This document shows, in pieces, positions 8,450 to 39,387 of a stretch of 49,762 bases of DNA. The stretch is taken from the NCBI GenBank assembly GCA_044371965.1, contig JBILSS010000001.1:1-49762 (forward strand), in the 5' to 3' direction. Made by a program: the position numbers and the translations under genes. The notes beneath the pieces were generated by a model. It made no database searches. It was not told the origin of the DNA and was given only the letters and a program-made list of their open reading frames with translations. How positions within the stretch are numbered: the stretch's first letter is position 1; the number at the start of each line of letters is the position of its first letter. This DNA is from Vampirovibrionales bacterium. Lineage in GTDB: Bacteria > Cyanobacteriota > Vampirovibrionia > Vampirovibrionales > JAJTHC01.

Positions 8450-9829
8450 ATGGGTGTAAGCACCGTAACCCTTGAAAGCCTTACTCCTGAAGCCAGTGGA
8501 CTATTGACCATTTTACCGTTGGTCTTGTACACGCTCATGGCGGTGGCGTGGTTGTGGTTTAGCTTCCCTACGCTAAAAGGCAGGCAACGAGCCTATTTCA
8601 TCGTCAGTTTTGTGACGATGACCTATATCGCCCTTGCCTTTATGAAGTCGCCTTACCTTTATTTAATGGTGCTGGCGATTAGTGCGACCTTTAGCTTTTG
8701 TACCTATGTGGTGGATGTGCCTCGCCGATCAGCATCCGTATTGTTGGCATTCTTGGGTTTTTTACTGCTCTTGCCTTCGGAAGTGAGTCATAGCTTGTGG
8801 GTGTTATGGTTTATGAGCCTGTCGCTTCAAAATTACTTTTTCTATCAACGAGGTGTCGTCAAAGCCCGTGGAGACTTGGTCAAGTCCACCTTCTTTTGGG
8901 GAGGCATCGTACTGGTAAACCTACTATTCATCTACCCCAGTTTAGACAAACTCTCGTTAAGCTCTTTTATTATTTCAGGCGGATTCGCCAGCGTCTTACC
9001 CTTTTTCTTGTCGGTGGGCTTGTCTCCCGCACTTGAATATCTCTTCGATTTTTTATCATCTTTGACCTTGCTAGAACTGTCAAATTTGGATCATCCCTTG
9101 ATTAAGCGTCTACAAGTCGAAGCCCCTGGGACCTTCCATCATAGCTTGTTATTAGCGACTTTATCAGAACAGGCGTCTGATGATATTAACGCCAACGGGT
9201 TGTTGACTCGTGTGGGGTGCTTGTACCATGACATCGGTAAAATGAAGCGTCCGATTTATTTTGTTGAAAATCAAGCCTATTTTGGCGTGTCGAATCCGCA
9301 TGATTATTTGAACCCTCGCATGAGCAAACTCATTGTAACGGCTCACCCCATTGACGGTATGAAGTTAGGTGAAGAGTACAAATTACCTGATGCCATTCAA
9401 GCCTTTATGCCTGAACATCACGGTACACTCATTTGTGGATACTTTTACGCCCAAGCCCTTAAGGAAGAAGGCAAAGATCACGTCACCAAAGCCCAATTTC
9501 GCTATTCAGGGCCTAAGCCCCAAACTCGTGAAACGGCGATTGTCATGCTTGCCGATGCTGCTGAATCCGCCGTGCGTGCCTTAAACTCCCCCACCCCCGA
9601 CCAAGTGGATGCCTTGTTAGAAATCATTTTCAAGCAACGCATTGAAGACGGTCAGTTTGACGAATGCCCCATTACCATGCAAGAAATCTGGAAAATCAAG
9701 AAGTCGTTTACGAAAGGCTTAAGTGCGATCCATCACCAACGGGTGAACTATGCCGAAAAAATCAGCCAAGTGCGTTCGGCGGGCAAGTCTAATCCTATGA
9801 GTAAGGGCTACATTCAACCACCTGCTTAA
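8450..9829 (+). CDS. Membrane HD-domain phosphohydrolase (7TM-HD, PgpH-like candidate c-di-AMP phosphodiesterase)
   Basis: 459-aa ORF. About 7 predicted TM helices, then an HD domain: HHSLLLATLSE...LYHDIGKMKRP...PEHHGT...MLADAAESAVR. It lacks the long extracellular N-terminal domain of canonical PgpH. Confidence 0.75.
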   Translation: MGVSTVTLESLTPEASGLLTILPLVLYTLMAVAWLWFSFPTLKGRQRAYFIVSFVTMTYIALAFMKSPYLYLMVLAISATFSFCTYVVDVPRRSASVLLAFLGFLLLLPSEVSHSLWVLWFMSLSLQNYFFYQRGVVKARGDLVKSTFFWGGIVLVNLLFIYPSLDKLSLSSFIISGGFASVLPFFLSVGLSPALEYLFDFLSSLTLLELSNLDHPLIKRLQVEAPGTFHHSLLLATLSEQASDDINANGLLTRVGCLYHDIGKMKRPIYFVENQAYFGVSNPHDYLNPRMSKLIVTAHPIDGMKLGEEYKLPDAIQAFMPEHHGTLICGYFYAQALKEEGKDHVTKAQFRYSGPKPQTRETAIVMLADAAESAVRALNSPTPDQVDALLEIIFKQRIEDGQFDECPITMQEIWKIKKSFTKGLSAIHHQRVNYAEKISQVRSAGKSNPMSKGYIQPPA

Positions 9830-24178: not shown

Positions 24179-25522
24179 TTAAGGGCTGGTCGGATACTCA
24201 CTCAAGGCTTGACGCAAGGCATAACGCTCTAAAATCGCTTCAATGTCAATCACACTATTAAAGAAGCTGCGGTTCGTTAAGGTAAAACGCTGGGCATAAT
24301 TGGCTTGAGCCTCACGATCCGCCATTGGAGCGTTTAAGTAGTCGTGTAAGGTCGCTTCCACCGAGCTTAAATCCTGCGGAATATACTGCAAAGCCTTGCC
24401 GTAATAACTTTTGAGCCACTGTTTCGGCTCCGTGATAAGATTGGCTCCATTCGCCGTAGCATTGTCGATGCGGTCATGCCCACTTTCAGGATACATCGGG
24501 AAAATATGCCAAACGGCTTGAGTGTCGCCATATAACGCCACAGACGTCCCCGATTCAGGCGGAGGCAGAATCGTCCATTTGTCCGACAAAAAGGAGGCTT
24601 TTTCCCACCCATTCCCACACAAGGTCAGCGGAATGTTTTTCGCTTGCCTTAGAAAATGCTCACGCCAGTACATTTCCGCACTATGGTTGATCCACGCCAT
24701 CAGTCGAGGGTACTGATACGGGTGAACCTCTTGCGGATTCACGCCGAGGCGTTCTAGCCCATCGAGCAAGAAGGTATCGGCAGGATGTTCAGGCGAAGCG
24801 ATGAGGTAGTCGATCGCTTCTTTGCAAAGGGCTTCAAAGGCAGGGAACTTTGGGAACTTTAATGATTCTAGCTTTTCTTGAAAGGGGGTAAAACTACACG
24901 GCACCAAAAGTGAAATCGTCCGTTCTTTAAACGGTTTTTGCGTTTCAAAGGACGGAAACCCTACACCAGGAAGGGTCGTATTAAAGGCTTTAAGCGGATG
25001 CTTCACCACACGATGCTGGCTATTTCGAAAGCCTTCAATCGCAAAGTGAGCATTGATTTTTTCAGGATAATCCACTTCAGTAATGCGAGGCAACTGAATC
25101 AAGGGGTGATCCGCAAACCACGACAAGCTAGGTACTTTAAGATGTTGCCCAAGCGTCTTACGGTTGCTTAATTCAATGGCTTCATGGATGGCATTAAAGC
25201 TCACTAACATCGTGGGTTTAAAGTCCTTAAGAATGCCGTCGAGTTCTTGGTTGGCGTGGGGATTGTCCTTCAAATTAAGCTTTGCGGTGGCGTGACCTCG
25301 TAAACGAAAGGCATCGTTGAGGTTTTGGGTGAATTGATTTAACGCACCGTATTGAGATCCGCCTTCGACTAAGAGAATTTGCTCTTTTTTAGTGAGCTTG
25401 GGGGCGTGCCGATAGATATAGCTTGCCAAGGCGTCTAGTGACGTGGGGACGTTTTCTAGCATAGGGATGCCTCGTGGGCGAGCGGTTTCGGTCGTGGGAG
25501 GGCTAATGGTATTGGTGGACAT
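24179..25522 (-). CDS. Hypothetical protein (possibly a GT-B/CgeB-like glycosyltransferase fold; not confidently assigned)
   Basis: 447-aa ORF with normal composition. The C-terminal part CGNGWEKASFL...RIDNATANGANLITE is reminiscent of CgeB/DUF3880-type proteins, but I cannot verify this. Confidence 0.6.
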   Translation of the reverse strand: MSTNTISPPTTETARPRGIPMLENVPTSLDALASYIYRHAPKLTKKEQILLVEGGSQYGALNQFTQNLNDAFRLRGHATAKLNLKDNPHANQELDGILKDFKPTMLVSFNAIHEAIELSNRKTLGQHLKVPSLSWFADHPLIQLPRITEVDYPEKINAHFAIEGFRNSQHRVVKHPLKAFNTTLPGVGFPSFETQKPFKERTISLLVPCSFTPFQEKLESLKFPKFPAFEALCKEAIDYLIASPEHPADTFLLDGLERLGVNPQEVHPYQYPRLMAWINHSAEMYWREHFLRQAKNIPLTLCGNGWEKASFLSDKWTILPPPESGTSVALYGDTQAVWHIFPMYPESGHDRIDNATANGANLITEPKQWLKSYYGKALQYIPQDLSSVEATLHDYLNAPMADREAQANYAQRFTLTNRSFFNSVIDIEAILERYALRQALSEYPTSP

Positions 25523-25671
25523 CGCAGGGGCTTCCTCATTTTAGTGATGCTTCTTATTATAGTCCTGCTTGAGCGTTTCGTTTTGTGTGGTTTTAAAAAT
25601 ACGTTTCTTGCATGATGTGTAATTGATGGCGAGATCTTGACAAAGCCGCTTACATTTGACACAATATAAAA

Positions 25672-25840
25672 AGGGGGAGTCCCCAAGCGTAAAAGCTTGA
25701 GAACTCCGTTCAGCTATCCTCCTAGAGTTTGGTCACTAGAAGGAGGATAATTAGTAACATCGAAAGATGTTCTATATAATCCATTTTGCTTCACCTCCTT
25801 TCTGTTAGATTGGGGGGTGTTGCTTATTAGCAACCCTTTT
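25672..25840 (+). ncRNA. Candidate antisense (antitoxin-like) RNA, copy A; ends approximate
   Basis: The predicted TSS is about 7 nt after CACAAT. The RNA is fully complementary to the minus-strand peptide ORF, its SD (contains UCACCUCCUUUCU) and its start codon. It ends at hairpin GGGUGUUGC-UUAUUA-GCAACCC plus UUUU (25812-25840). The plus strand has no conserved ORF. Confidence 0.5.
25722..25784 (-). CDS. 20-aa hydrophobic peptide MDYIEHLSMLLIILLLVTKL (candidate type I toxin), copy A
   Basis: ATG 25784 is preceded by AGAAAGGAGGTGA (25803-25791) with a 6-nt spacer. The peptide has a hydrophobic core and a C-terminal K. The ORF is conserved in copies B and C. A minus-strand terminator follows: GGAGU..CAAGC-loop-GCUUG..ACUCC plus CCCUUUUUAU (25707-25662). 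Confidence 0.6.
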   Translation of the reverse strand: MDYIEHLSMLLIILLLVTKL

Positions 25841-25882
25841 AAGGCTTTTTATAAGCTAGCATAAACTTGTAACGCCTTCAAG

Positions 25883-26842
25883 TTACAATAATAAGTTCCG
25901 CTGGATCCGCCTCAAACCGTTACGACGCAAGGGACTGTTCTCAAAGGCTTGAGCAAACGCATCTTCACTCAAACTCTGAAAATACGCCCGACTGGGATGC
26001 TCCAACACCGCCCGAGGGCTAAAGGCAGGCTCCTCAGTCACTTTGGAAAACTTCAGGTTCCATGGGCAGACGTCTTGGCAAATATCGCATCCAAAGCCCC
26101 AATCCTGCTGGTTTGCTTGGATGAAATCAGGCAAATACTCATCCGTATTTTCAATCGTCCAATAGGCGATGCATCGACGGCTGTCGACCACCGTGGGCGA
26201 GACGATCGCATCGGTTGGGCAAGCGGTGATGCATCGTGTACACGTCCCACAATGCCCCGATTCCAGCGTGTTTTCGTGGGGGCTTGTATAGGCATCGACG
26301 GCTTGATTGAGGAACAACGCCCCAATCATCACCCATGAGCCGACTTCTTTCGTGATTAAAAGACTATGCTTGCCTTGCCAGCCCAAGCCTGCTTGAACGG
26401 CGAGTGCCTTTTCTAGCAAGGGAGCCGAATCCACAAAGGGACGCCCGTCTAAGCCGTCATGTTCCGTCTGTAATGCCTTTAAGACCTTACCCAATTTACG
26501 ACGCAAAACCTTGTGATAGTCTTTACCTAGGGCGTAGCGAGCGATTTTCAGATCGTCGCCTTGCCCAGCTTGCCAACCAGGGAAGTAGTTGATCGCCACC
26601 ACCACGACACTTTGCACCCCTTCCCACAAATCAGGCGGAGACACTCGTTTTTCGGCATGACGAGGCATCCAGTCCATGTCGGCGTGATGCCCAGCATCCA
26701 GCCACGCCGTCAGGCGTTGGGCTTCGTTTTTGAGGGCATCGGTGGTGAGAACGCCCCACTGTGTGATGCCCACGTCGTTCAGCTGTTTTTGGATGTCGGT
26801 GTGGGGGATCAAAGAGGGCATCCTTTTATTAAAAAGCGTCAT
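25883..26842 (-). CDS. queG: tRNA epoxyqueuosine(34) reductase
   Basis: 319-aa ORF with two ferredoxin-type clusters CGTCTRCITACPTDAI and CDICQDVCPWN, plus an N-terminal QueG-type domain. Confidence 0.85.
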   Translation of the reverse strand: MTLFNKRMPSLIPHTDIQKQLNDVGITQWGVLTTDALKNEAQRLTAWLDAGHHADMDWMPRHAEKRVSPPDLWEGVQSVVVVAINYFPGWQAGQGDDLKIARYALGKDYHKVLRRKLGKVLKALQTEHDGLDGRPFVDSAPLLEKALAVQAGLGWQGKHSLLITKEVGSWVMIGALFLNQAVDAYTSPHENTLESGHCGTCTRCITACPTDAIVSPTVVDSRRCIAYWTIENTDEYLPDFIQANQQDWGFGCDICQDVCPWNLKFSKVTEEPAFSPRAVLEHPSRAYFQSLSEDAFAQAFENSPLRRNGLRRIQRNLLL

Positions 26843-26922
26843 GATACTTTGCTAAGTGTATCATGACGCTAGATTTATAGGGCGAATACGTTGTTTTTTA
26901 TATTCCACCAGCTTATCAAATG

Positions 26923-27258
26923 TTAGAGTTTATAAGGATTGACTCGTGTACTAGTAGGAGTCAATGCTTCATAATGGGATGTTATTTCTGCCGTCCAGTT
27001 CTGTTCAGGAAGATCTACAATCCGCTTTAACCAACTCGAGGTAATTTCTTCAAGTTCAGATAAAGCACCTACTTGTGGACCTTTTAGTTGACCACTCGAC
27101 TGTAAATTTTTATAGTTCTTTAACGAACGTAATGTTGCTAAATCCTTGAGTAATCGTTCCGCTTCAGTAGAGAGATTTCCACTACGTTGTACGTCACTTG
27201 CTTTCGCTTGTGCAGTGTTTTGTGAAGAGGTAAGGCGAGAGGCGATATTCATCGACAT
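26923..27258 (-). CDS. Hypothetical protein (111 aa)
   Basis: ORF only. Somewhat AT-richer than its neighbours. No motif recognised. Confidence 0.45.
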   Translation of the reverse strand: MSMNIASRLTSSQNTAQAKASDVQRSGNLSTEAERLLKDLATLRSLKNYKNLQSSGQLKGPQVGALSELEEITSSWLKRIVDLPEQNWTAEITSHYEALTPTSTRVNPYKL

Positions 27259-27456
27259 GGGTTTTTTCCTTAGGGTTAGGGGGTATTGTTAAAAGCTCTG
27301 TTAGAAGCTTACGTATACATAAAAGCCCCTCAAGTTTGCTTTGGAACCGTTACGTTACAAATTGTTACAAAAAGCACTCAAAATCGTGGGTTTTACGCAC
27401 TATGAAATAGCGTAAATAGTTGTCATGCTTAGTATAGTAGCCATAGCGTCTTACCC

Positions 27457-27475
27457 CCTCCCCTTTAAGGGGAGG
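27457..27475. repeat. C/G-run hairpin CCTCCCC-TTTAA-GGGGAGG
   Basis: Perfect 7-bp stem. Part of a 27.42-27.70 kb stretch rich in GGAGAGG/CCTCTCC words. Confidence 0.5.
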
Positions 27476-27642
27476 AAAACAACCTTCTCATTCACGAAGT
27501 GAATCTACTTCTTTAGGATGGAGAGGTTGGGAGAGGAAACCAACGGTTTTCTTTCCCAAGAGAAAAAGTTTACTTTTTCGACCATGTTGGGGTGGGGAGT
27601 AGATGTAAACACTGTAGTCTAGGCATCCCCCCCTCTCCCTAG

Positions 27643-27662
27643 CCCTCTCCTCAAGGAGAGGG
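27643..27662. repeat. C/G-run hairpin CCCTCTCC-TCAA-GGAGAGGG
   Basis: Perfect 8-bp stem, preceded by CCCCCCCTCTCCCTAG. Same word family as 27457..27475. Confidence 0.5.
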
Positions 27663-27705
27663 GATAAGACTTAATTACGCCCCAAACCCCAAAGGAGACC
27701 CCGAA

Positions 27706-28137
27706 ATGAAACTCTATCGTGGAGACAACGACCCTCGCATCGGCTTACGCACCCGCTACGACATGCGACGGGGCTGTTTTATTACGTCGCATACACGCTT
27801 TAACTTTTTTACGACCACGGGCGGATCTCGCACCGAATCGGAAGAACACTTCATGGACAGACTCGAAGCGTGGTTTGAAGTCATGGAAGAAGCGGGCAAA
27901 CCGATTGACCGCACCGCAACCTATGAAAAGCCTCCAGGGATTGTAGGGCGTCCGAAATCGGATCGGGTGCGGATGCATCTTTGGGTGTCGAAAAACTTTA
28001 AGCAAATCCTTCAACGAGAAGCCAAAGTCTTGCACCTTTCGTTGAGTGATGTGGTTGAACATGCATTTATGCATTACTTTAAGAAAGAAGCCCATAAAGA
28101 GTTGTGGGAGTTTCGAGGCGAAGAAGGACCTCATTAG
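27706..28137 (+). CDS. Hypothetical protein with a C-terminal ribbon-helix-helix (CopG/ParG/Arc-like) candidate DNA-binding domain
   Basis: 143-aa ORF. The C-terminal RVRMHLWVSKNFKQILQREAKVLHLSLSDVVEHAFMHYFKK has the beta-strand/helix/helix pattern of RHH proteins. It is followed immediately by the iteron array. Confidence 0.55.
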   Translation: MKLYRGDNDPRIGLRTRYDMRRGCFITSHTRFNFFTTTGGSRTESEEHFMDRLEAWFEVMEEAGKPIDRTATYEKPPGIVGRPKSDRVRMHLWVSKNFKQILQREAKVLHLSLSDVVEHAFMHYFKKEAHKELWEFRGEEGPH

Positions 28138-28309
28138 TGGAAAGATCTGCTTTCTGTGTGTCGAAATCGGTTATTCTATGTGTCAGGAAAACAGGTTTTG
28201 TGTGTCAGAAAAGAAGGTTCTATGTGTCGAAACCCCCTATTCTGTGTGTCGGAAAAGCAGGTTTCGTGTGTCAAAAATCGACTTTCGTGTGTCGGAAATC
28301 AACGCCTTT
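28135..28309. repeat. Iteron array: 7 phased 22-bp units with TGTGTC(R)(R)AAA cores, plus one degenerate leading unit
   Basis: TGTGTC starts at 28157, 28179, 28201, 28223, 28245, 28267 and 28288, giving spacings of 22, 22, 22, 22, 22 and 21. A leading degenerate unit GTGGAAAGATCTGCTTTCTG overlaps the stop of the upstream ORF. The array ends at the proC stop. Confidence 0.85.
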
Positions 28310-29134
28310 TTAGACGTTTTTCGACAACTCTTCGGCTCGACGTGTCGCTGCATGGACGGCATCCACCAACGCCCTCGACACATTCGCCGATGCCAACGCC
28401 TCTAAGCCTTTCGCCGTCGTGCCGTTAGGGGTGACGACCTCCGCCTTTAGCTGAGATGCAGTCGTAGCACGGGCTTCCAGCAACAAGGCGGAGCCTTTCA
28501 CCAGCTGAAGCACACCTGCTTCCACCAGTTCAGGGGGCAAACCTTCGGATAAACCCGCGTCTACCAAGGCTTCCATGATGTAAAACACATACGCAGGACC
28601 ACTACCAAACAAGCCTGTAAAGGCGTTGATCTGCCCTTCTTCGAGCCAAACCGCCTTGCCCATCGCCTCAAACACGGATTCCACCAGCGTTTTTTGAGCA
28701 TCCCCCACAAAGGCATTCGGAGCCATTGCCGTAAAGCCTTGTCCCACAAGGGCTGGCGTATTCGGCATAACCCGCACGATCGCTGTATCTGGCAAAGACT
28801 TGCCTAAGGTTTCTAGCGTGATACCAGCCGCAATAGAAAGCACCAAAACACCTTCTTTTAGAGAGATTTTCGCCAAATCCGCCAATACAAGTGGCATAAT
28901 AAAGGGTTTTAGCCCCAAAAGCAAGACATCCACTTGGGCAAGGGATGCTTGTCCTTTTTCAAGCGTGGTGCAGGAAACGCCGAATTTCGCTTCTCTTACA
29001 CGGGCTTGATCTTCTGAAGAATCAATGGCGATAACGTTTTCAGGCAAAACGCCCGCCTTTAATAAACCTTCTAAAATGGCTCCCGACATTGTGCCTAAGC
29101 CGATAATACCGATTTTGATCGTATTTAAAGACAT
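28310..29134 (-). CDS. proC: Pyrroline-5-carboxylate reductase
   Basis: IGIIGLGTMSGAI Rossmann motif, MPNTPALVGQG, GSGPAYVFY, VVTPNGTTAKGL. Confidence 0.9.
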   Translation of the reverse strand: MSLNTIKIGIIGLGTMSGAILEGLLKAGVLPENVIAIDSSEDQARVREAKFGVSCTTLEKGQASLAQVDVLLLGLKPFIMPLVLADLAKISLKEGVLVLSIAAGITLETLGKSLPDTAIVRVMPNTPALVGQGFTAMAPNAFVGDAQKTLVESVFEAMGKAVWLEEGQINAFTGLFGSGPAYVFYIMEALVDAGLSEGLPPELVEAGVLQLVKGSALLLEARATTASQLKAEVVTPNGTTAKGLEALASANVSRALVDAVHAATRRAEELSKNV

Positions 29135-29146
29135 TGCTCGCTCCTT

Positions 29147-30748
29147 TTAGTGGCGGAATTCTCGAACGGAAGTCGCCAGCATGGCGATGTCATACTGGTT
29201 AACAGCCGAAATCACGTCGGCATCCTTAATGCTACCCGCAGGCTGAATGATGCACGCCACACGGTTTTGCGCCGCAAGCTGGATGTTGTCCACCGCAGGG
29301 AAGAAGCCGTCGGACGCTAAAACCGCTCCGTTGGCGTTTTCACAGGCTTGAGCCAAGGCTTGCTCTACCGCACCGACTCGGCTGGTTTGACCGCCTGAAA
29401 GCCCCCATGCTTGACCGTCTTTGGCTACGACAATGGCGTTCGATTTCAAATGCTTAGCGACCTTCCACGCAAAAGCCGCATCCCTCAACTGATCTTCGGT
29501 GGGCTTTTTCTTGGAAATCACCTTGAGTTCCTTTGCCATCAAGGCTTCCGCCTTGGCGAACTGCTGTTCTTGGATCAAGACCAAATTCGGACTCACCTGC
29601 TTCAAATACAGACCATCCCTAGTTTCCGCAGGATGCTTGCCCGATTCAGGCGTCACCCAAGGGCGAGTGACCAAACGCAGGTTTTTCTTGGCTTGCAAAA
29701 TCGACAAAGCCTCTTCGCTAAAGCTCGGAGCAAGAATGACTTCGGTGAAAATATCCACCATCGCTTTCGCCGTGGATTCGTCCACCGCACGGTTTAGCAC
29801 GACCACGCCTCCAAAGGCAGACAAGGGATCGCAGTCCAAGGCACGCTTATAGGCTTTCGCCAACGTGATGCCCACCGCCACACCGCACGGCTGATTATGC
29901 TTGATAATCGCCGCCGCTGGCTCGTCGTCAAATTCGCAAATGAGGTTCCACGCCGCTTCCATATCCACGATATTGTTGTACGACAAGGGCTTGCCGTGCA
30001 AGACATGAAAATCAACTTCATCAGGACGAATGGCAAATAACGCCGCCGCTTGGTGCGGATTTTCGCCGTAACGCATGCTTTGAATATTGTGCAAGGTCAG
30101 GTTCATCGTCGTGGGGAACTCGAGGGCATCGGCGTTGTCGCCCAAGGCTTCGGCGAGGATTTGGCTCGACAACCAGCCACTAATGGCGTTGTCATACGTC
30201 GAAGAACGCTGAAATGCCGCAAGTGCTAGGCGTTTACGCAAGCCTAGCGATGTTTGCCCGCCGTTGACGGCTAAATCGGCGATGAGGGCGTCGTATTGAT
30301 CAGGACTCGATACCACGGCGACATCCGCATGGTTTTTCGCAGCGGCTCGAATGAGGGACGATCCGCCAATATCGATGAGTTCGACCATGGCGTTCGGGCT
30401 TTCCGCCGTTTGCGATTGTGCCAAACCGAGTTCAAAGGGATACAAATTCACGGCGACGACATCAATTTTAAAGGTGACATCTTTCATGTGATCGGCTTTG
30501 TCACGCTTGGCGAGAATGCCTGCAAATACGGTGGGATGAAGGCTTTTCACCCGCCCTTCTAGGATTTCGTCAAAGCCTGTGACGGTGGACAAATCCACGA
30601 CGTTTAGCCCAGCGTCTTCGAGCGTTTTGCGAGATCCGCCCGTGGCGATGAGTCCAAAGCCGAACTTGGCTTGCAAGGCGGTGGCGAGTTCAACGATATG
30701 GGTTTTGTCCCAGACGGAGATAAAAGCGTAGCGAGTGGGGTTTGTCAT
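29147..30748 (-). CDS. purH: Bifunctional AICAR transformylase / IMP cyclohydrolase
   Basis: 533-aa ORF. FISVWDKTHIVELA...TGGSRKTLEDAGL...GRVKSLHPTVFAGILA. C-terminal ...IIQPAGSIKDADVI...TSVREFRH. Confidence 0.92.
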   Translation of the reverse strand: MTNPTRYAFISVWDKTHIVELATALQAKFGFGLIATGGSRKTLEDAGLNVVDLSTVTGFDEILEGRVKSLHPTVFAGILAKRDKADHMKDVTFKIDVVAVNLYPFELGLAQSQTAESPNAMVELIDIGGSSLIRAAAKNHADVAVVSSPDQYDALIADLAVNGGQTSLGLRKRLALAAFQRSSTYDNAISGWLSSQILAEALGDNADALEFPTTMNLTLHNIQSMRYGENPHQAAALFAIRPDEVDFHVLHGKPLSYNNIVDMEAAWNLICEFDDEPAAAIIKHNQPCGVAVGITLAKAYKRALDCDPLSAFGGVVVLNRAVDESTAKAMVDIFTEVILAPSFSEEALSILQAKKNLRLVTRPWVTPESGKHPAETRDGLYLKQVSPNLVLIQEQQFAKAEALMAKELKVISKKKPTEDQLRDAAFAWKVAKHLKSNAIVVAKDGQAWGLSGGQTSRVGAVEQALAQACENANGAVLASDGFFPAVDNIQLAAQNRVACIIQPAGSIKDADVISAVNQYDIAMLATSVREFRH

Positions 30749-30883
30749 GGTGGAGTGTCCTTTGCTTTGGGTTCAGAGAGTCTATTGTACTTAAAACACG
30801 ATTTTTTGACTAGGGGGGCGATTTGGGAGGAGGAAGCGACTCGACCCCTTGACAAAGCCTGCGAGATTTGCCACAATATAAAA

Positions 30884-31047
30884 AGGGGGAGTCCCCAAGC
30901 TTGCGAGACTTGAGAACTCCACGCTATCTTCTTAGCTTTTTAAGACTAATAAGAAGATTATCAGCAGAAGTAGTGTTTCTGATGTAATCATTTTAGCTCA
31001 CCTCCTTTCTGTTACAGAACGGGGGTGTTGCTTATTAGCAACCCTTT
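30884..31047 (+). ncRNA. Candidate antisense (antitoxin-like) RNA, copy B; ends approximate
   Basis: Same architecture as copy A. Terminator GGGUGUUGC-UUAUUA-GCAACCC plus UUU at 31023-31047. The plus-strand ATG is followed directly by TAA, so it is non-coding. Confidence 0.5.
30932..30991 (-). CDS. 19-aa hydrophobic peptide MITSETLLLLIIFLLVLKS (candidate type I toxin), copy B
   Basis: ATG 30991 is preceded by AGAAAGGAGGTGA with a 6-nt spacer. The sequence differs from A and C at most positions but keeps the acidic N-terminus, hydrophobic core and penultimate K. Confidence 0.6.
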   Translation of the reverse strand: MITSETLLLLIIFLLVLKS

Positions 31048-31130
31048 AAAGGTTTTCATTAGGCTAACATAAAGCCGCAAGTGATTCAAGAACACTTGAC
31101 AAAGCCTGCGAGATTTGACACAATATAAAA

Positions 31131-31302
31131 AGGGGGAGTCCCCAAGTGTACTAGACTTGAGAACTCCTTTGAAAGCTATCCTCCTAACGTTTCCACACTA
31201 GAAGGAGGATAATTAGTAACATCGAAAGATGTTCTATATGATCCATTTTGCCTCACCTCCTTTCGTTACAGAATGGGGGTGTTGCTTATTAGCAACCCTT
31301 TT
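31131..31302 (+). ncRNA. Candidate antisense (antitoxin-like) RNA, copy C; ends approximate
   Basis: Same architecture as copy A. Terminator hairpin plus UUUUAUUU at 31277-31306. Confidence 0.5.
31184..31246 (-). CDS. 20-aa hydrophobic peptide MDHIEHLSMLLIILLLVWKR (candidate type I toxin), copy C
   Basis: ATG 31246 is preceded by CGAAAGGAGGTGA with a 6-nt spacer. It differs from copy A only at Y3H, T18W and L20R. Confidence 0.6.
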   Translation of the reverse strand: MDHIEHLSMLLIILLLVWKR

Positions 31303-31439
31303 ATTTCAGGTTTTTATTAGGTTACCATAAAGCCGTAAGCCTTTCAAGCAACAACCCACGTTCACCCAAAACAATAAAATTGTGCAAAAACGTTCTTTGA
31401 GGTAAGATAAGAAACAATCATCCACAAGGAGCGTTAGAC

Positions 31440-32801
31440 GTGTCTTTTTCAAAAAGCAATGCCGTTAAAGTAGGACTCTTCACCTTGCTCAGCTTGGGCG
31501 TTTTATTTGGCACCGTGTATTGGCTCAAAAGCCGTGAGTTCCAACAAGGACTCGCCTATAGCGTCTCCTTCCCCGATGTCGACGGCTTGCGTGAAGGCGC
31601 ACCCGTGCAACTCATGGGAACCCAAGTCGGCTATGTGGAAAAAATCATCCCGCAATTTGACAAAAACAAGTTTGATGTCGACGTGCAGTTTCGCCTCGCC
31701 AGCAAAGACAATCCCATCCCCAAGGCGTCGGTGCTTTCGATTGAGCAATCGGGCTTGATTAGCGAAAAGCTCCTTGAAATTACACCGCCTCACCTGCAGT
31801 GGACGGATGTGGAAACGGCGTATTCTCCTACGGAAAAGCCCTTGCCGTGGAACTTAGAGCTTCGCATGAAAGAAGGCTGGGTGGATATTGGCACGGTTGA
31901 AAAGGTGGAAGCTTTGCAGGCGCCTCCTGAAACGCCGTTGAACAAAAAGAAGTTTTACTTGGGCAAGCGTCTGTATTTTAGAATTACTCGGCCGGGGATT
32001 TTATTGCCTGAAGTGCCGTTTTACTTTATGAAGTCGTCTAAACAGGGACTTGCCTTGCGGATTGATTCGTATGATGCGGAATGGTCGCCTGCTTCGTTAC
32101 CTGCTCAAGGCACCTATTTTACGGTGGAAACGCCGTTGCGATTGAAGAAGTTCTTGCAAGCGTCGATTGCGTCTGCCGAAGCCTTGAAAGAAACCAACGA
32201 CAAAATCAACGCTCTGTTGGATGCTGAAACCATCGTGCATATTCAACAGATTATTGAAAACGTGAAATTACTGTCGGGTCAAACCACGGAATTGGTTTCG
32301 ACCACGCAAAGCTTGCTCAAAACCTTGAAGCAAGATGTTCATAGTATGGTGCAGTCTGTTTCGACGTTGAGCAAGTCCTTAACTCGATTGATGAATAATA
32401 TCAACATTTTAGTGAACGATCCCATGCTGAAAGACGATTTCAAGGGACTCATCACCGACTTGCGTCAAACCGTTTTGCAGGCTCAAGCCTTGATTAGTTC
32501 TCCTGAATTGGCGAGTACCTTTAAAAAAGCGAACTTGGCGTTAGACAACGTCAATAATGTGGCGACTTTGGCAAAAACCAAGCTTGAAGCGGAAACGCTG
32601 ACCACGAAAATGGAAGTCACCTTAAGCGAGCTGAATACCTTGCTCGTGAAAGCGAATAAGGTGACGGATGACAAGACGAATCCGATTACGAAAGAAGTGC
32701 TTCAAAATGTGGTGAATGACGCCACCGTGACCCTACAAAATCTCAAGCAATTTAGTAAAAAATTGCAAGGGCATTTTGTGCTTTGGAAATTGGCGTTTTA
32801 A
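31440..32801 (+). CDS. MlaD/MCE-family protein with a long C-terminal coiled-coil region
   Basis: 453-aa ORF (GTG start). N-terminal TM, then the MCE core SFPDVDGLREGAPVQLMGTQVGYVEKI. The C-terminal half is heptad-like and low complexity. Confidence 0.7.
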   Translation: MSFSKSNAVKVGLFTLLSLGVLFGTVYWLKSREFQQGLAYSVSFPDVDGLREGAPVQLMGTQVGYVEKIIPQFDKNKFDVDVQFRLASKDNPIPKASVLSIEQSGLISEKLLEITPPHLQWTDVETAYSPTEKPLPWNLELRMKEGWVDIGTVEKVEALQAPPETPLNKKKFYLGKRLYFRITRPGILLPEVPFYFMKSSKQGLALRIDSYDAEWSPASLPAQGTYFTVETPLRLKKFLQASIASAEALKETNDKINALLDAETIVHIQQIIENVKLLSGQTTELVSTTQSLLKTLKQDVHSMVQSVSTLSKSLTRLMNNINILVNDPMLKDDFKGLITDLRQTVLQAQALISSPELASTFKKANLALDNVNNVATLAKTKLEAETLTTKMEVTLSELNTLLVKANKVTDDKTNPITKEVLQNVVNDATVTLQNLKQFSKKLQGHFVLWKLAF

Positions 32802-33785: not shown

Positions 33786-34782
33786 ATGGAAGGTCAATTG
33801 GTAGCAGGACACTTGAAAAATTTTGAAGCGTGTGTTCAACGTGAAGATGATATAGAGTTTTGGTATGCTCGGGATATTGCCCCTCTTTTAGAGTACAAAG
33901 AGTGGCGTAACTTTCAGAACGTCATTGAAAAAGCAAAGGAAGCTTGTGAAAATAGTAGTCATTCATTTGCATACCATTTTGTTGACGTCAACAAAATGGT
34001 TTCGCTTGGATCTGGAGCCATAAGGGAACTTGATGATATAAAGCTAACACGCTACGCCTGCTATAGTATCCGATAGATAAAACGGTCTATGGTCTCTTCG
34101 TTGTCGCTACGATTTTTTTGTTTAGTTATGTAGGTCTATCTACACGCCCTCACAAAAAAATCTAGGCTCCTAGAATAGCCTCATAGCCTGTTTCATCTAT
34201 CGAACACTATACCTTATAGCGATGAATGGAGACCCCAAAAAACAGGCGATTGCCTTTGCACAAAGCTACTTTGCTTTTCAAACAAGAAAGCAAGAACTGA
34301 TTGAAGAACGACTCAAAACACTTGACCGCTTATGGAAACGAGAAGAGCTTACGCAATCTGAAACGAGACTGTCCGCCAATATTTACCAGCGTGGGGTGGA
34401 TGCAAGGGGTTTTGCCACAATCCGAAGTAAGGGAGACACGGCGTTGTTTGGAGGCAACTCCACAAAAGATATGAAAGAAAAACTAGGCGTCCCTGATTCA
34501 AGTCCTCTAGCAGATTATCTTCCCACCTTGACGATCGCTGCGAAGAACCTAGCCACTGAAATTACGAACCATAATGTGGAATCGAATAACCTTCAAGGGG
34601 AAAGAAAGATAAGCGACGAACACGTGACAAATAATACAAGCGTGAGGGGTTTACTGGTAGAAAAAGGGATTTTCCCTGAAGCCTTACCTGTTGAAGAAGA
34701 TCTAAAAAAGCTTAAACGAAAAATCGAGAAAGAACATAAGTTACTCAATAAAAACCCCAAGAAATTTAATCAAAAGGATTGA
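33786..34782 (+). pseudogene. dinD: DNA-damage-inducible protein D (DinD family), split by a 146-bp MITE
   Basis: The upstream part ends ...DDIKLTRYACY then SIR-stop inside the insertion. The downstream frame resumes YLIAMNGDPKKQAIAFAQSYFAFQTRKQEL... Removing 34064..34209 plus one TA restores ...LTRYACYLIAMNGDP..., the conserved DinD core. Confidence 0.8.
34064..34209. mobile_element. 146-bp MITE (copy 1) with a TA target-site duplication
   Basis: TA(34062-63)|TAGTATCCGATAGATAAAACGG...CCTGTTTCATCTATCGAACACTA|TA(34210-11). It has ~22-bp terminal inverted repeats. The core TTGTCGCTACGATTTTTTTGTTTAG...CACAAAAAAATCTAGGCTCC is shared with 39242..39387. No ORF. Confidence 0.85.
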
Positions 34783-39244: not shown

Positions 39245-39387
39245 TGTTTTAAATAATTTCCCCTACAGTGTCTATACTTTGTCGCTACGATTATTTTGTT
39301 CAGTCATGTAAGTCTATCTACACTTCTTCACAAAATAATCTAGGCTCCTCGTCTAGCCTACTGTACGGAAAACTCTTTAAAACACTA
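39242..39387. mobile_element. 146-bp MITE (copy 2) with a TA target-site duplication
   Basis: TA(39240-41)|TAGTGTTTTAAATAATTTCCCCTACAG...CTGTACGGAAAACTCTTTAAAACACTA|TA(39388-89). Same length and core as copy 1. The sub-terminal ~25 nt differ from copy 1 on both sides but remain mutually complementary. Confidence 0.85.

Follow-up and report, generated by a model that had tools for sequence, protein, structure and literature searches.

The 49,762-nucleotide (nt) stretch of DNA analysed here, hereafter the window (positions 1 to 49,762 of contig JBILSS010000001.1, assembly GCA_044371965.1, from a Vampirovibrionales bacterium), contains three copies of a compact intergenic unit that carries a small open reading frame (ORF) and two convergent promoters. 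Our analysis suggests that this unit is a chromosomal type I toxin-antitoxin-like module belonging to a family that has not been described before and is restricted to a subclade of uncultured Vampirovibrionales, a reading to which we attach a probability of about 60%. One strand would give an mRNA for a short hydrophobic peptide, presumed to be toxic, and the other an antisense RNA that would repress it. The initial annotation had recognised an intact third copy of the two-promoter unit at 25637-25881 (copy A), and coordinates, layout and profile search agree on it: an nhmmer profile finds exactly three copies in the window (E = 3e-81 to 3e-84). The other two, C and B, stand in tandem at 30849-31347, ~5.2 kb from copy A, as established by repeat finding and alignment.

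All three window copies have one common layout, bordered by the two -35 boxes. Read on the peptide strand, it runs from a weak promoter through a 5′ hairpin, a Shine-Dalgarno sequence, the ORF and a hairpin at the stop codon to a terminator, and a near-consensus promoter faces it on the opposite strand.

Coding signature and conservation of the unit

In 19 of the 20 aligned copies, the frame starting at the aligned ATG stays open over 19-24 codons (the exception, L036, has a large internal deletion), and no alternative frame is open in all of them. Every insertion or deletion in the ORF is a multiple of three across these 20 copies. The Shine-Dalgarno sequence, an exact complement of the 16S rRNA 3′ end, is held at a constant 5-6 nt from the ATG over the aligned copies. 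The ratio of nonsynonymous to synonymous polymorphism (pN/pS) is 0.08-0.24 in the B subtype and 0.16-0.26 in the D subtype. The peptides consist of a polar or acidic N-terminal head, a hydrophobic run and then a lysine; the longest stretch free of charged or strongly polar residues measures 12 residues in eight of the nine peptides scored and 11 in the remaining one, and the grand average of hydropathicity (0.8-2.6) overlaps the values for E. coli IbsA (1.98) and IbsB (2.34). In the type I class, the short hydrophobic protein comes from a small ORF that has translation signals of its own, a feature that this ORF shares. Because the frame is open, the Shine-Dalgarno sequence fixed and the indels in triplets, and given the pN/pS values and the hydrophobic run, comparison of the copies indicates that selection acts on the ORF as coding sequence.

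The peptides of copies A and C differ at residues 3 (Tyr/His), 18 (Thr/Trp) and 20 (Leu/Arg), so that the three amino-acid changes given in the initial annotation for codons 3, 18 and 20 are reproduced. Peptide A of both L041 and L006, two relatives of the window discussed below, has His at residue 3, which indicates that Tyr3 of the window peptide is a recent change. Ten peptides of at least 20 residues were absent, on exact look-up, from a collection of 15 billion proteins. In the close relative L048, the public gene call at 9565-9732 is an ORF of 55 residues; it lies on the module strand, begins inside the module 3′ of the 20-residue ORF, and extends beyond the module end; the conserved 20-residue ORF is left uncalled. 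Module genes escape standard annotation.

The promoters bound the unit on either side. The general form of the putative peptide promoter is TTGAAn-17-TAnnnT with a preceding TG, and in copy A it reads TTGAAG-17-TAGCTT; the one observation that points to this promoter is the TTTATGnTAnnnT motif (TG-n-TAnnnT), which is nearly invariant among the 17 full-length copies. A promoter scan returned the same antisense promoter in copies B and C as in copy A, and its -35 box is invariant or nearly so in the alignment.

Conservation within the unit is very uneven (Table 1). Promoters, Shine-Dalgarno sequence and hairpins are preferentially conserved relative to the flanks and the frame is maintained. The unit, for which the initial annotation had proposed selection or mobility as a whole, is conserved in its entirety across several Vampirovibrionales genomes. 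The initial annotation had also considered a generic dispersed repeat whose ORF and promoters are not preferentially conserved; this description does not fit the family, since the signals outconserve the flanks and the reading frame is maintained. Decay of copies is asymmetric. The convergent promoter is kept in all 19 aligned copies for which the 3′ end is available, and the terminator-like hairpin on the plus strand is also present; from two copies in L006 the peptide promoter and the 5′ hairpin have been lost, and most of the ORF is gone from L036. Such a pattern is expected if loss of the antisense RNA would be harmful while the peptide gene is intact.

Table 1. Copies of the unit in the window, elements of copy A and neighbouring genes, with mean pairwise identity among the 17 full-length copies
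Feature	Coordinates	Strand	Identity	Basis or remark
Copy A, complete unit of ~250 nt	25637-25881	minus		sequence reading, ORF list, alignment
Copy C, complete unit	31096-31347	minus		ORF 31246..31184 encodes MDHIEHLSMLLIILLLVWKR
Copy B, complete unit directly after C	30849-31089	minus		ORF 30991..30932 encodes MITSETLLLLIIFLLVLKS
Putative peptide-promoter -35, TTGAAG	25876..25881	minus	0.73	4/6 consensus positions; CTTGAA in most aligned copies
Putative peptide-promoter -10, TAGCTT, with TG upstream (extended -10 type)	25853..25858	minus	0.78	function assigned from conservation
Hairpin in 5′ untranslated region, GGGTTGCTAATAAGCAACACCC	25815..25836	minus	0.96	
Shine-Dalgarno sequence AAGGAGGTGA, 10 nt, 6 nt before ATG	25791..25800	minus	1.00	invariant in 20/20 aligned copies
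ORF, 20 codons + stop, MDYIEHLSMLLIILLLVTKL	25722..25784	minus		ORF list, alignment
ORF codons 3-11			0.50	
Hairpin over last ORF codons and stop (ATCCTCCT...AGGAGGAT)	25716..25748	minus		covariation
Intrinsic terminator of peptide mRNA	25666..25707	minus		13-pair stem 25707-25676, then T-run
Terminator arms			0.88-0.93	3′ arm inflated (see text)
Terminator loop (hypervariable)			0.51	
Convergent promoter of putative antisense RNA, TTGACA-17-CACAAT, with upstream TG	25637..25665	plus		10/12 matches
Antisense -10			1.00	
Sequence just outside the unit			0.35-0.49	
queG (epoxyqueuosine reductase), outside the module	25883-26842	minus		319 aa; Pfam QueG_DUF1730 + Fer4_16
447-aa ORF downstream of copy A	24179-25522	minus		ORF list

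Predicted RNAs and pairing between copies

The two predicted convergent RNAs are almost co-extensive, at ~179 nt each in copy A, where the antisense RNA is predicted to span ~25672 to ~25850, and at 173-186 nt over the three copies. Their ends are embedded in one another. The complement of the peptide-mRNA terminator forms the 5′ stem-loop of the predicted antisense RNA; conversely, the 5′ hairpin of the mRNA (general form GGGTTGCT-loop-AGCAACACCC), read on the plus strand with a T-rich run, is a putative terminator of the antisense RNA.

Folds were predicted for both RNAs of copy A (mRNA, -64.3 kcal/mol, z-score -6.8; antisense RNA, -60.0 kcal/mol, z-score -3.5), and the 15 distinct mRNAs, each folded singly, all share one architecture. 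A closing helix is predicted between AAAAGGG near the mRNA 5′ end and CCCUUUU after the terminator. In all 15 a second hairpin (CACC.CC with GG.GGUG) is predicted to sequester the Shine-Dalgarno sequence, which in copy A would pair with an upstream CACCCCC. The remaining predicted elements are the 5′ hairpin, an ORF-internal hairpin whose sequence is subtype-specific, the stop-codon hairpin and the terminator, the arms of which pair solely with each other in the 15 folds, with no antiterminator alternative predicted. The Shine-Dalgarno helix and the helix joining the two ends are predictions without covariation support; in the Shine-Dalgarno pairing this is because both sides are invariant.

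Covariation is found in the stop-codon hairpin, in which three of the eight pairs are altered on both sides between subtypes (CG/UA, UA/CG and UG/GC/AU). The covariation score was reached by none of 500 shuffles, and slid controls scored far lower. These changes alter codon 13 (Leu/Phe/Tyr) and are compensated beside the stop codon. Pairing is also strand-dependent: terminator positions pair at 97.9% on the peptide strand versus 82.1% on the opposite strand, the difference involving G-U pairs, and the stop-codon hairpin at 96.7% versus 87.5%. Because G-U pairs give better pairing on the peptide strand, these figures indicate that structure is selected on the peptide mRNA.

A mechanism can be proposed from this anatomy. 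The weak promoter would drive a highly structured minus-strand mRNA of ~180 nt that encodes a 19-24-residue peptide, presumed to act on the membrane. The ribosome-binding site is very strong, but a local hairpin would occlude it; the mRNA would also pair its 5′ end with its 3′ end, so the full-length mRNA is predicted to be poorly translated. From the opposite side, the stronger, near-consensus convergent promoter would drive an antisense RNA of ~175-185 nt complementary to nearly all of the mRNA, ribosome-binding site and ORF included, and pairing of the two RNAs may block translation, trigger degradation, or both. The terminator stem of each RNA would double as the 5′ stem-loop of the other, and copies may multiply, vanish and exchange their central segment by recombination between conserved arms. 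If so, the unit is a compact natural example, within 250 bp, of two convergent promoters and two mutually embedded terminators.

With three copies in one window, cross-talk has to be considered. Predicted net duplex energies are -221 to -234 kcal/mol for cognate pairs, -143 to -147 kcal/mol for A with C, and -76 to -87 kcal/mol for B with A or C. The A/C values make the cross-pairing suggested by the initial annotation plausible. Its further suggestion that copy B is orthogonal has no thermodynamic support: besides the B energies, there are perfect blocks common to antisense B and the mRNAs of A and C, of 27 nt (in the 5′ hairpin) and of 13-17 nt that include the Shine-Dalgarno sequence and so reach the ribosome-binding site. 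On these models, any discrimination of B from A and C would have to be kinetic. For the similar Sib/Ibs paralogues, discrimination is reported to depend on two short recognition domains, one in the ORF and one at the translation-initiation region (PMC2943612). Here, the hypervariable parts of the unit, codons 3-11 of the ORF and the loop of the terminator, probably determine cognate recognition, and natural sequence variants of the unit could be used for studying how an antisense RNA discriminates cognate from non-cognate targets.

Distribution, turnover and neighbourhood

A search for further copies and their neighbourhoods, as proposed in the initial annotation, recovered 20 more in about ten Vampirovibrionales genomes or metagenome contigs, or 23 with those of the window; this count is of full or partial copies and includes three identical ones (L048-L050) as well as L027, L036 and L041. 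The Vampirovibrionales are part of the Melainabacteria, the sister group of Cyanobacteria. A scan of the genome collection with a 19-mer of the terminator returned 12 loci, ten of which are from Vampirovibrionales metagenome-assembled genomes (MAGs); one is in a "Gammaproteobacteria" bin and one is a chance match in a Spirochaetota MAG. The copy in the Gammaproteobacteria bin (L012, JBEISK010000032.1) is almost identical to that of the Vampirovibrionales contig L007, and its assignment is probably a binning error. Metagenomes were scanned with the pattern ACACCCCC-N8-14-GAAAGGAGGTGA, which gave 26 matches, mostly to 16S rRNA 3′ ends, because the Shine-Dalgarno sequence complements that end, or to unrelated genes; true copies among the 26 were L027 and L036 only. 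An exact look-up of RplJ led to metagenome contigs 99-100% identical to the window, an exact look-up of QueG returned no record, and contig CANGYO010000001.1 is syntenic with the window at 82-92% identity.

All copies are intergenic and lie between ordinary chromosomal genes, including housekeeping genes; neighbours include ffh, a flagellar export gene, bipA and genes for a histidine kinase, a thiamine pyrophosphate (TPP) enzyme, anthranilate synthase, tetratricopeptide repeat (TPR) proteins and a radical S-adenosylmethionine (SAM) enzyme. In the window, purH follows copy B. No module was detected (nhmmer, E <= 10) in ~67 kb of contigs whose MlaD is 56-71% identical to that of the window. The family is narrow in range, since these more distant relatives have no copy and plasmid, phage and viral collections gave no match. 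On an unrelated metagenome contig, L034, positions 131-279 hold a weak look-alike (nhmmer E = 1.4e-6) with ACACCCCC, a Shine-Dalgarno sequence identical to that of the family, a hydrophobic ORF of 19 residues (MENIVGILTLIIVIYIISR), a terminator and a hairpin that spans the stop; no convergent promoter is recognisable.

Copy number and content change between close relatives. Over a 15-kb region the window has three copies and CANGYO has five, including an inverted one beside a restriction-modification gene pair. Upstream of mlaD, the window has C followed by B, and CANGYO has C alone; a relative with a 95% identical MlaD has a single copy there, with the peptide MDEIQQLMSLMIILLLVYKL, and in this relative the flanks are 95% identical to those of the window and codons 3-11 match at 13 of 27 positions. 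Upstream of purH, a B-type ORF in the window corresponds to a D-type ORF in CANGYO. The tandem duplication and dispersal of an intact unit described in the initial annotation are borne out, and extend to copy number differences between close relatives.

Its suggestion that the unit might be mobile as a whole is not. No transposase or integrase adjoins the copies among the neighbouring genes examined, there are no terminal inverted repeats beyond 5 nt common to the two -35 boxes, and neither blastn against plasmids and phages nor three pattern scans of viral contigs gave a match; carriage on mobile elements was dropped because of these empty collections. Gain and loss of units and replacement of their core look like the outcome of homologous recombination between conserved arms, not of transposition. 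Because the core differs at the mlaD locus between well-conserved flanks and a B-type ORF corresponds to a D-type one upstream of purH, we can tentatively entertain a further idea, that the family consists of recombining toxin/antisense cassettes whose arms provide homology to swap the hypervariable core (codons 3-11 and the terminator loop) between loci. It is a speculative part of the same proposal that the arms would be the promoters, 5′ hairpin, ribosome-binding site and terminator stem, and that the core would set both the peptide variant and RNA-RNA specificity. If this were true, a genome could keep and renew several mutually insulated toxin-antitoxin pairs, possibly as a defence or competition system in predatory Vampirovibrionales.

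The junction between copy A and queG also differs between relatives. A gap of 1 nt between the -35 box and the queG stop had been reported, and it can be read directly from the sequence: a single base (25882) separates the stop codon (TAA, 25885-25883) from TTGAAG at 25881-25876. The window QueG ends in ...RIQRN-LLL, its last three codons and stop being derived from AT-rich bases just upstream of the module -35. In L041, 99% identical to the window, the tail is ...RIQRN-CSVPSP and 245 nt then lead to the module; this spacer is palindrome-rich, and 212 of its 245 nt are 95% identical to window positions 27451-27662, which lie upstream of queG in the window. In L006, a relative at 82-92% identity, the tail is ...RIQRN-IML and is followed by ~415 nt to the A copy, a spacer that contains palindromes and a 5′-truncated module copy. 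Since L041 and L006 keep 245 nt and ~415 nt at the same junction, the contact is, on this comparison, a strain-specific, recent deletion scar rather than a regulatory arrangement, and the significance attached to it in the initial annotation falls away. Read-through from queG into the module is physically possible in the window strain, because no hairpin lies between them, and cannot be a conserved feature.

Other observations concern the same region. The QueG C-terminus is polymorphic after ...RIQRN (window 25883-25897), and intergenic rearrangements end inside its last codons. GC-rich palindromes (CCCTCTCCTTGAGGAGAGGG and CTCCTAAAATTAGGAG) resembling repetitive extragenic palindromic (REP) sequences recur beside module copies, at the end with the antisense promoter, and also where the queG region is rearranged (window ~27451-27662; L041 1325-1535; flanks of many module copies). 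One of these palindromes, at 27630-27664, matches Rfam whalefall-1 below threshold (21.8 bits versus a gathering score of 37, E = 0.032). In L006 (3897-5547), a DNA methylase and DpnI-like endonuclease pair lies between proC and queG beside an inverted module copy; this pair is absent from the window. Two further repeats are present in the window. Between a 143-aa ORF and proC, 28152-28277 consists of tandem repeats of 22 nt (TTCTGTGTGTCGAAA...), numbering at least 4-6 units; this array has a 73% identical homologue in another Vampirovibrionales MAG (L005 2261-2417) and may represent protein-binding sites. The other repeat, a second intergenic family of ~125 nt (window 34092-34181 and 39270-39359; L007 6515-6665; L041 142-266), with copies 84-93% identical and a TATAGT box upstream, forms a long hairpin closed by CCGTACAGT/ACTGTACGG (-26.5 kcal/mol, z-score -3.9) and has no Rfam match. 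In L041 one copy lies just upstream of queG, where the window sequence differs. This repeat may be a small RNA gene or an element resembling a miniature inverted-repeat transposable element (MITE).

Alternative explanations and known systems

Several points weigh against a toxin-antitoxin module. In the A/C subtype pN/pS is 0.3-0.9, which suggests weak or mixed constraint on that peptide. A hydrophobic stretch of 12 residues is shorter than a canonical membrane-spanning helix, and small membrane proteins controlled by antisense RNA are not necessarily toxins. The peptide promoter is weak, with ~7 of 12 consensus matches, and the consensus scan did not call it; the T-run of the plus-strand terminator is interrupted, and this terminator was scored in copy C alone. 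Covariation rests on about three sequence subtypes and so on few independent events, and conservation of the terminator 3′ arm and T-run is inflated, that 19-mer having been the genome search pattern. The main alternative is that the unit is a small membrane-protein gene under cis-antisense control, with a physiological role such as modulation of a membrane complex or a stress response, in which the antisense RNA tunes the level of the protein. The coding signature, the hydrophobic peptide and the conserved convergent promoter fit this explanation equally well. We nevertheless think it rather unlikely, given that genomes carry many divergent paralogues, often in tandem, that copy number varies between strains and the ORF segment is replaced at orthologous loci, that decay spares the antisense promoter, and that the family is narrow in range, with no copy in relatives that are slightly more distant; an accessory subunit with a housekeeping role should be single-copy, positionally stable and more widely conserved.

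A dispersed repeat of non-coding type with an incidental ORF (small RNA gene, bidirectional terminator/insulator cassette, or REP- or MITE-like element) would account for the greater conservation of the untranslated parts than of the ORF nucleotides, for the palindromic REP-like sequences that flank many copies, and for a unit that is both dispersed and tandemly repeated. It sits poorly with a frame that all 19 non-decayed copies keep open although their codons 3-11 are ~50% identical, with triplet indels and mostly synonymous changes in two subtypes, and with a perfect 10-nt Shine-Dalgarno sequence at constant distance from the ATG and a nearly constant hydrophobic length; we regard it as improbable. 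A MITE was rejected on genomic context and anatomy, and for MITE or REP elements the ends match over 5 nt only, no transposase or integrase gene is adjacent, and searches of plasmids, phages and viral contigs gave no copy. Rejected on the same two grounds was a leader-peptide attenuator, in which translation of a leader rich in Leu and Ile would govern the terminator and, through it, the gene downstream (the 447-aa gene for copy A, purH for copy B). The peptide is indeed rich in Leu and Ile, a strong terminator comes next and a same-strand gene follows in the window; however, downstream genes vary by locus and are often on the opposite strand (L002, L005 and L007), the next element in tandem arrays is another unit, antiterminator pairing was not predicted in the 15 folds, and the conserved convergent promoter is left unexplained, so that this possibility seems very remote.

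A type I toxin-antitoxin-like module remains the preferred reading. Tandem intergenic repeats encoding short hydrophobic ORFs have been a discovery criterion for new type I families (PMC2887945), and type I families are typically lineage-restricted and chromosomal (PMC5367252). The family has these features of classic type I loci: tandem intergenic duplication, a copy number that varies between relatives and a narrow lineage range.

The closest likeness is to the Ibs/Sib systems of Enterobacteriaceae (E. coli ibsA-E/sibA-E), and it is one of architecture only. The peptides there are very hydrophobic and of 18-19 residues, against 19-24 here, and the ORF lies wholly inside a cis-antisense RNA (~140 nt in E. 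coli). Tandem units in one intergenic region occur together with dispersed chromosomal copies: at 2153311-2153781 of NC_000913.3, ibsA (19 residues) lies in the 144-nt sibA and ibsB (18 residues) in the 136-nt sibB, the units being 335 bp apart. Both families consist of highly similar paralogues, among which cognate discrimination in Ibs/Sib is reported to depend on the ORF and the translation-initiation region (PMC2943612), and both show lineage-specific duplication and a narrow phylogenetic range (PMC2887945, PMC5367252). In contrast to Ibs/Sib, the host lineage here is Melainabacteria/Vampirovibrionales; instead of the MMK...SF.AY pattern, the peptide starts with acidic or polar residues and has a lysine behind its hydrophobic run; the predicted RNAs span nearly the same sequence, and each would end at the other's 5′ stem-loop; and toxicity and repression, presumed here, have been demonstrated for Ibs/Sib. 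Six peptides searched with hmmscan against Pfam-A and NCBIfam (E <= 10) matched no family and showed no Ibs homology. Rfam 15 gave no module match at gathering scores over the whole window, nor any match for copies A and B at E <= 5 (25500-31500); a PyrR hit over copy C (31162-31289, plus strand) was dismissed as chance (27.9 bits versus a gathering score of 54, E = 0.93).

A different likeness, to hok/Sok and Helicobacter aapA1/IsoA1, concerns control of translation. The primary transcript of the module is predicted to be translationally inert, its Shine-Dalgarno sequence paired with an upstream C-rich element and its 5′ and 3′ ends paired with each other; work on aapA1 is said to have found the same logic, an inert primary transcript with a sequestered ribosome-binding site. 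Unlike in those systems, the peptides are much shorter, the predicted antisense RNA covers the whole mRNA and not just its 5′ region, and no processing step that would activate the mRNA is indicated; the predicted pairings of the ribosome-binding site are invariant.

Nothing relevant emerged from literature searches on type I toxin-antitoxin systems in Melainabacteria or Vampirovibrio. Within the wider cyanobacterial lineage, MsoT1/MsoA1 of Microcystis aeruginosa, described in 2025 along with other candidate loci, is the one candidate type I system reported; type I systems are otherwise known only from Proteobacteria, Firmicutes and Tenericutes (PMC12390103). The Microcystis candidates are of 39-81 residues, with one or two predicted helices and partial antisense overlap (PMC12390103), and are not reported as a multicopy repeat family; the module described here has peptides of 19-24 residues and is found in non-photosynthetic Vampirovibrionales. 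If our reading is correct, a multicopy family resembling Ibs/Sib would extend the type I class to the non-photosynthetic sister lineage of Cyanobacteria.

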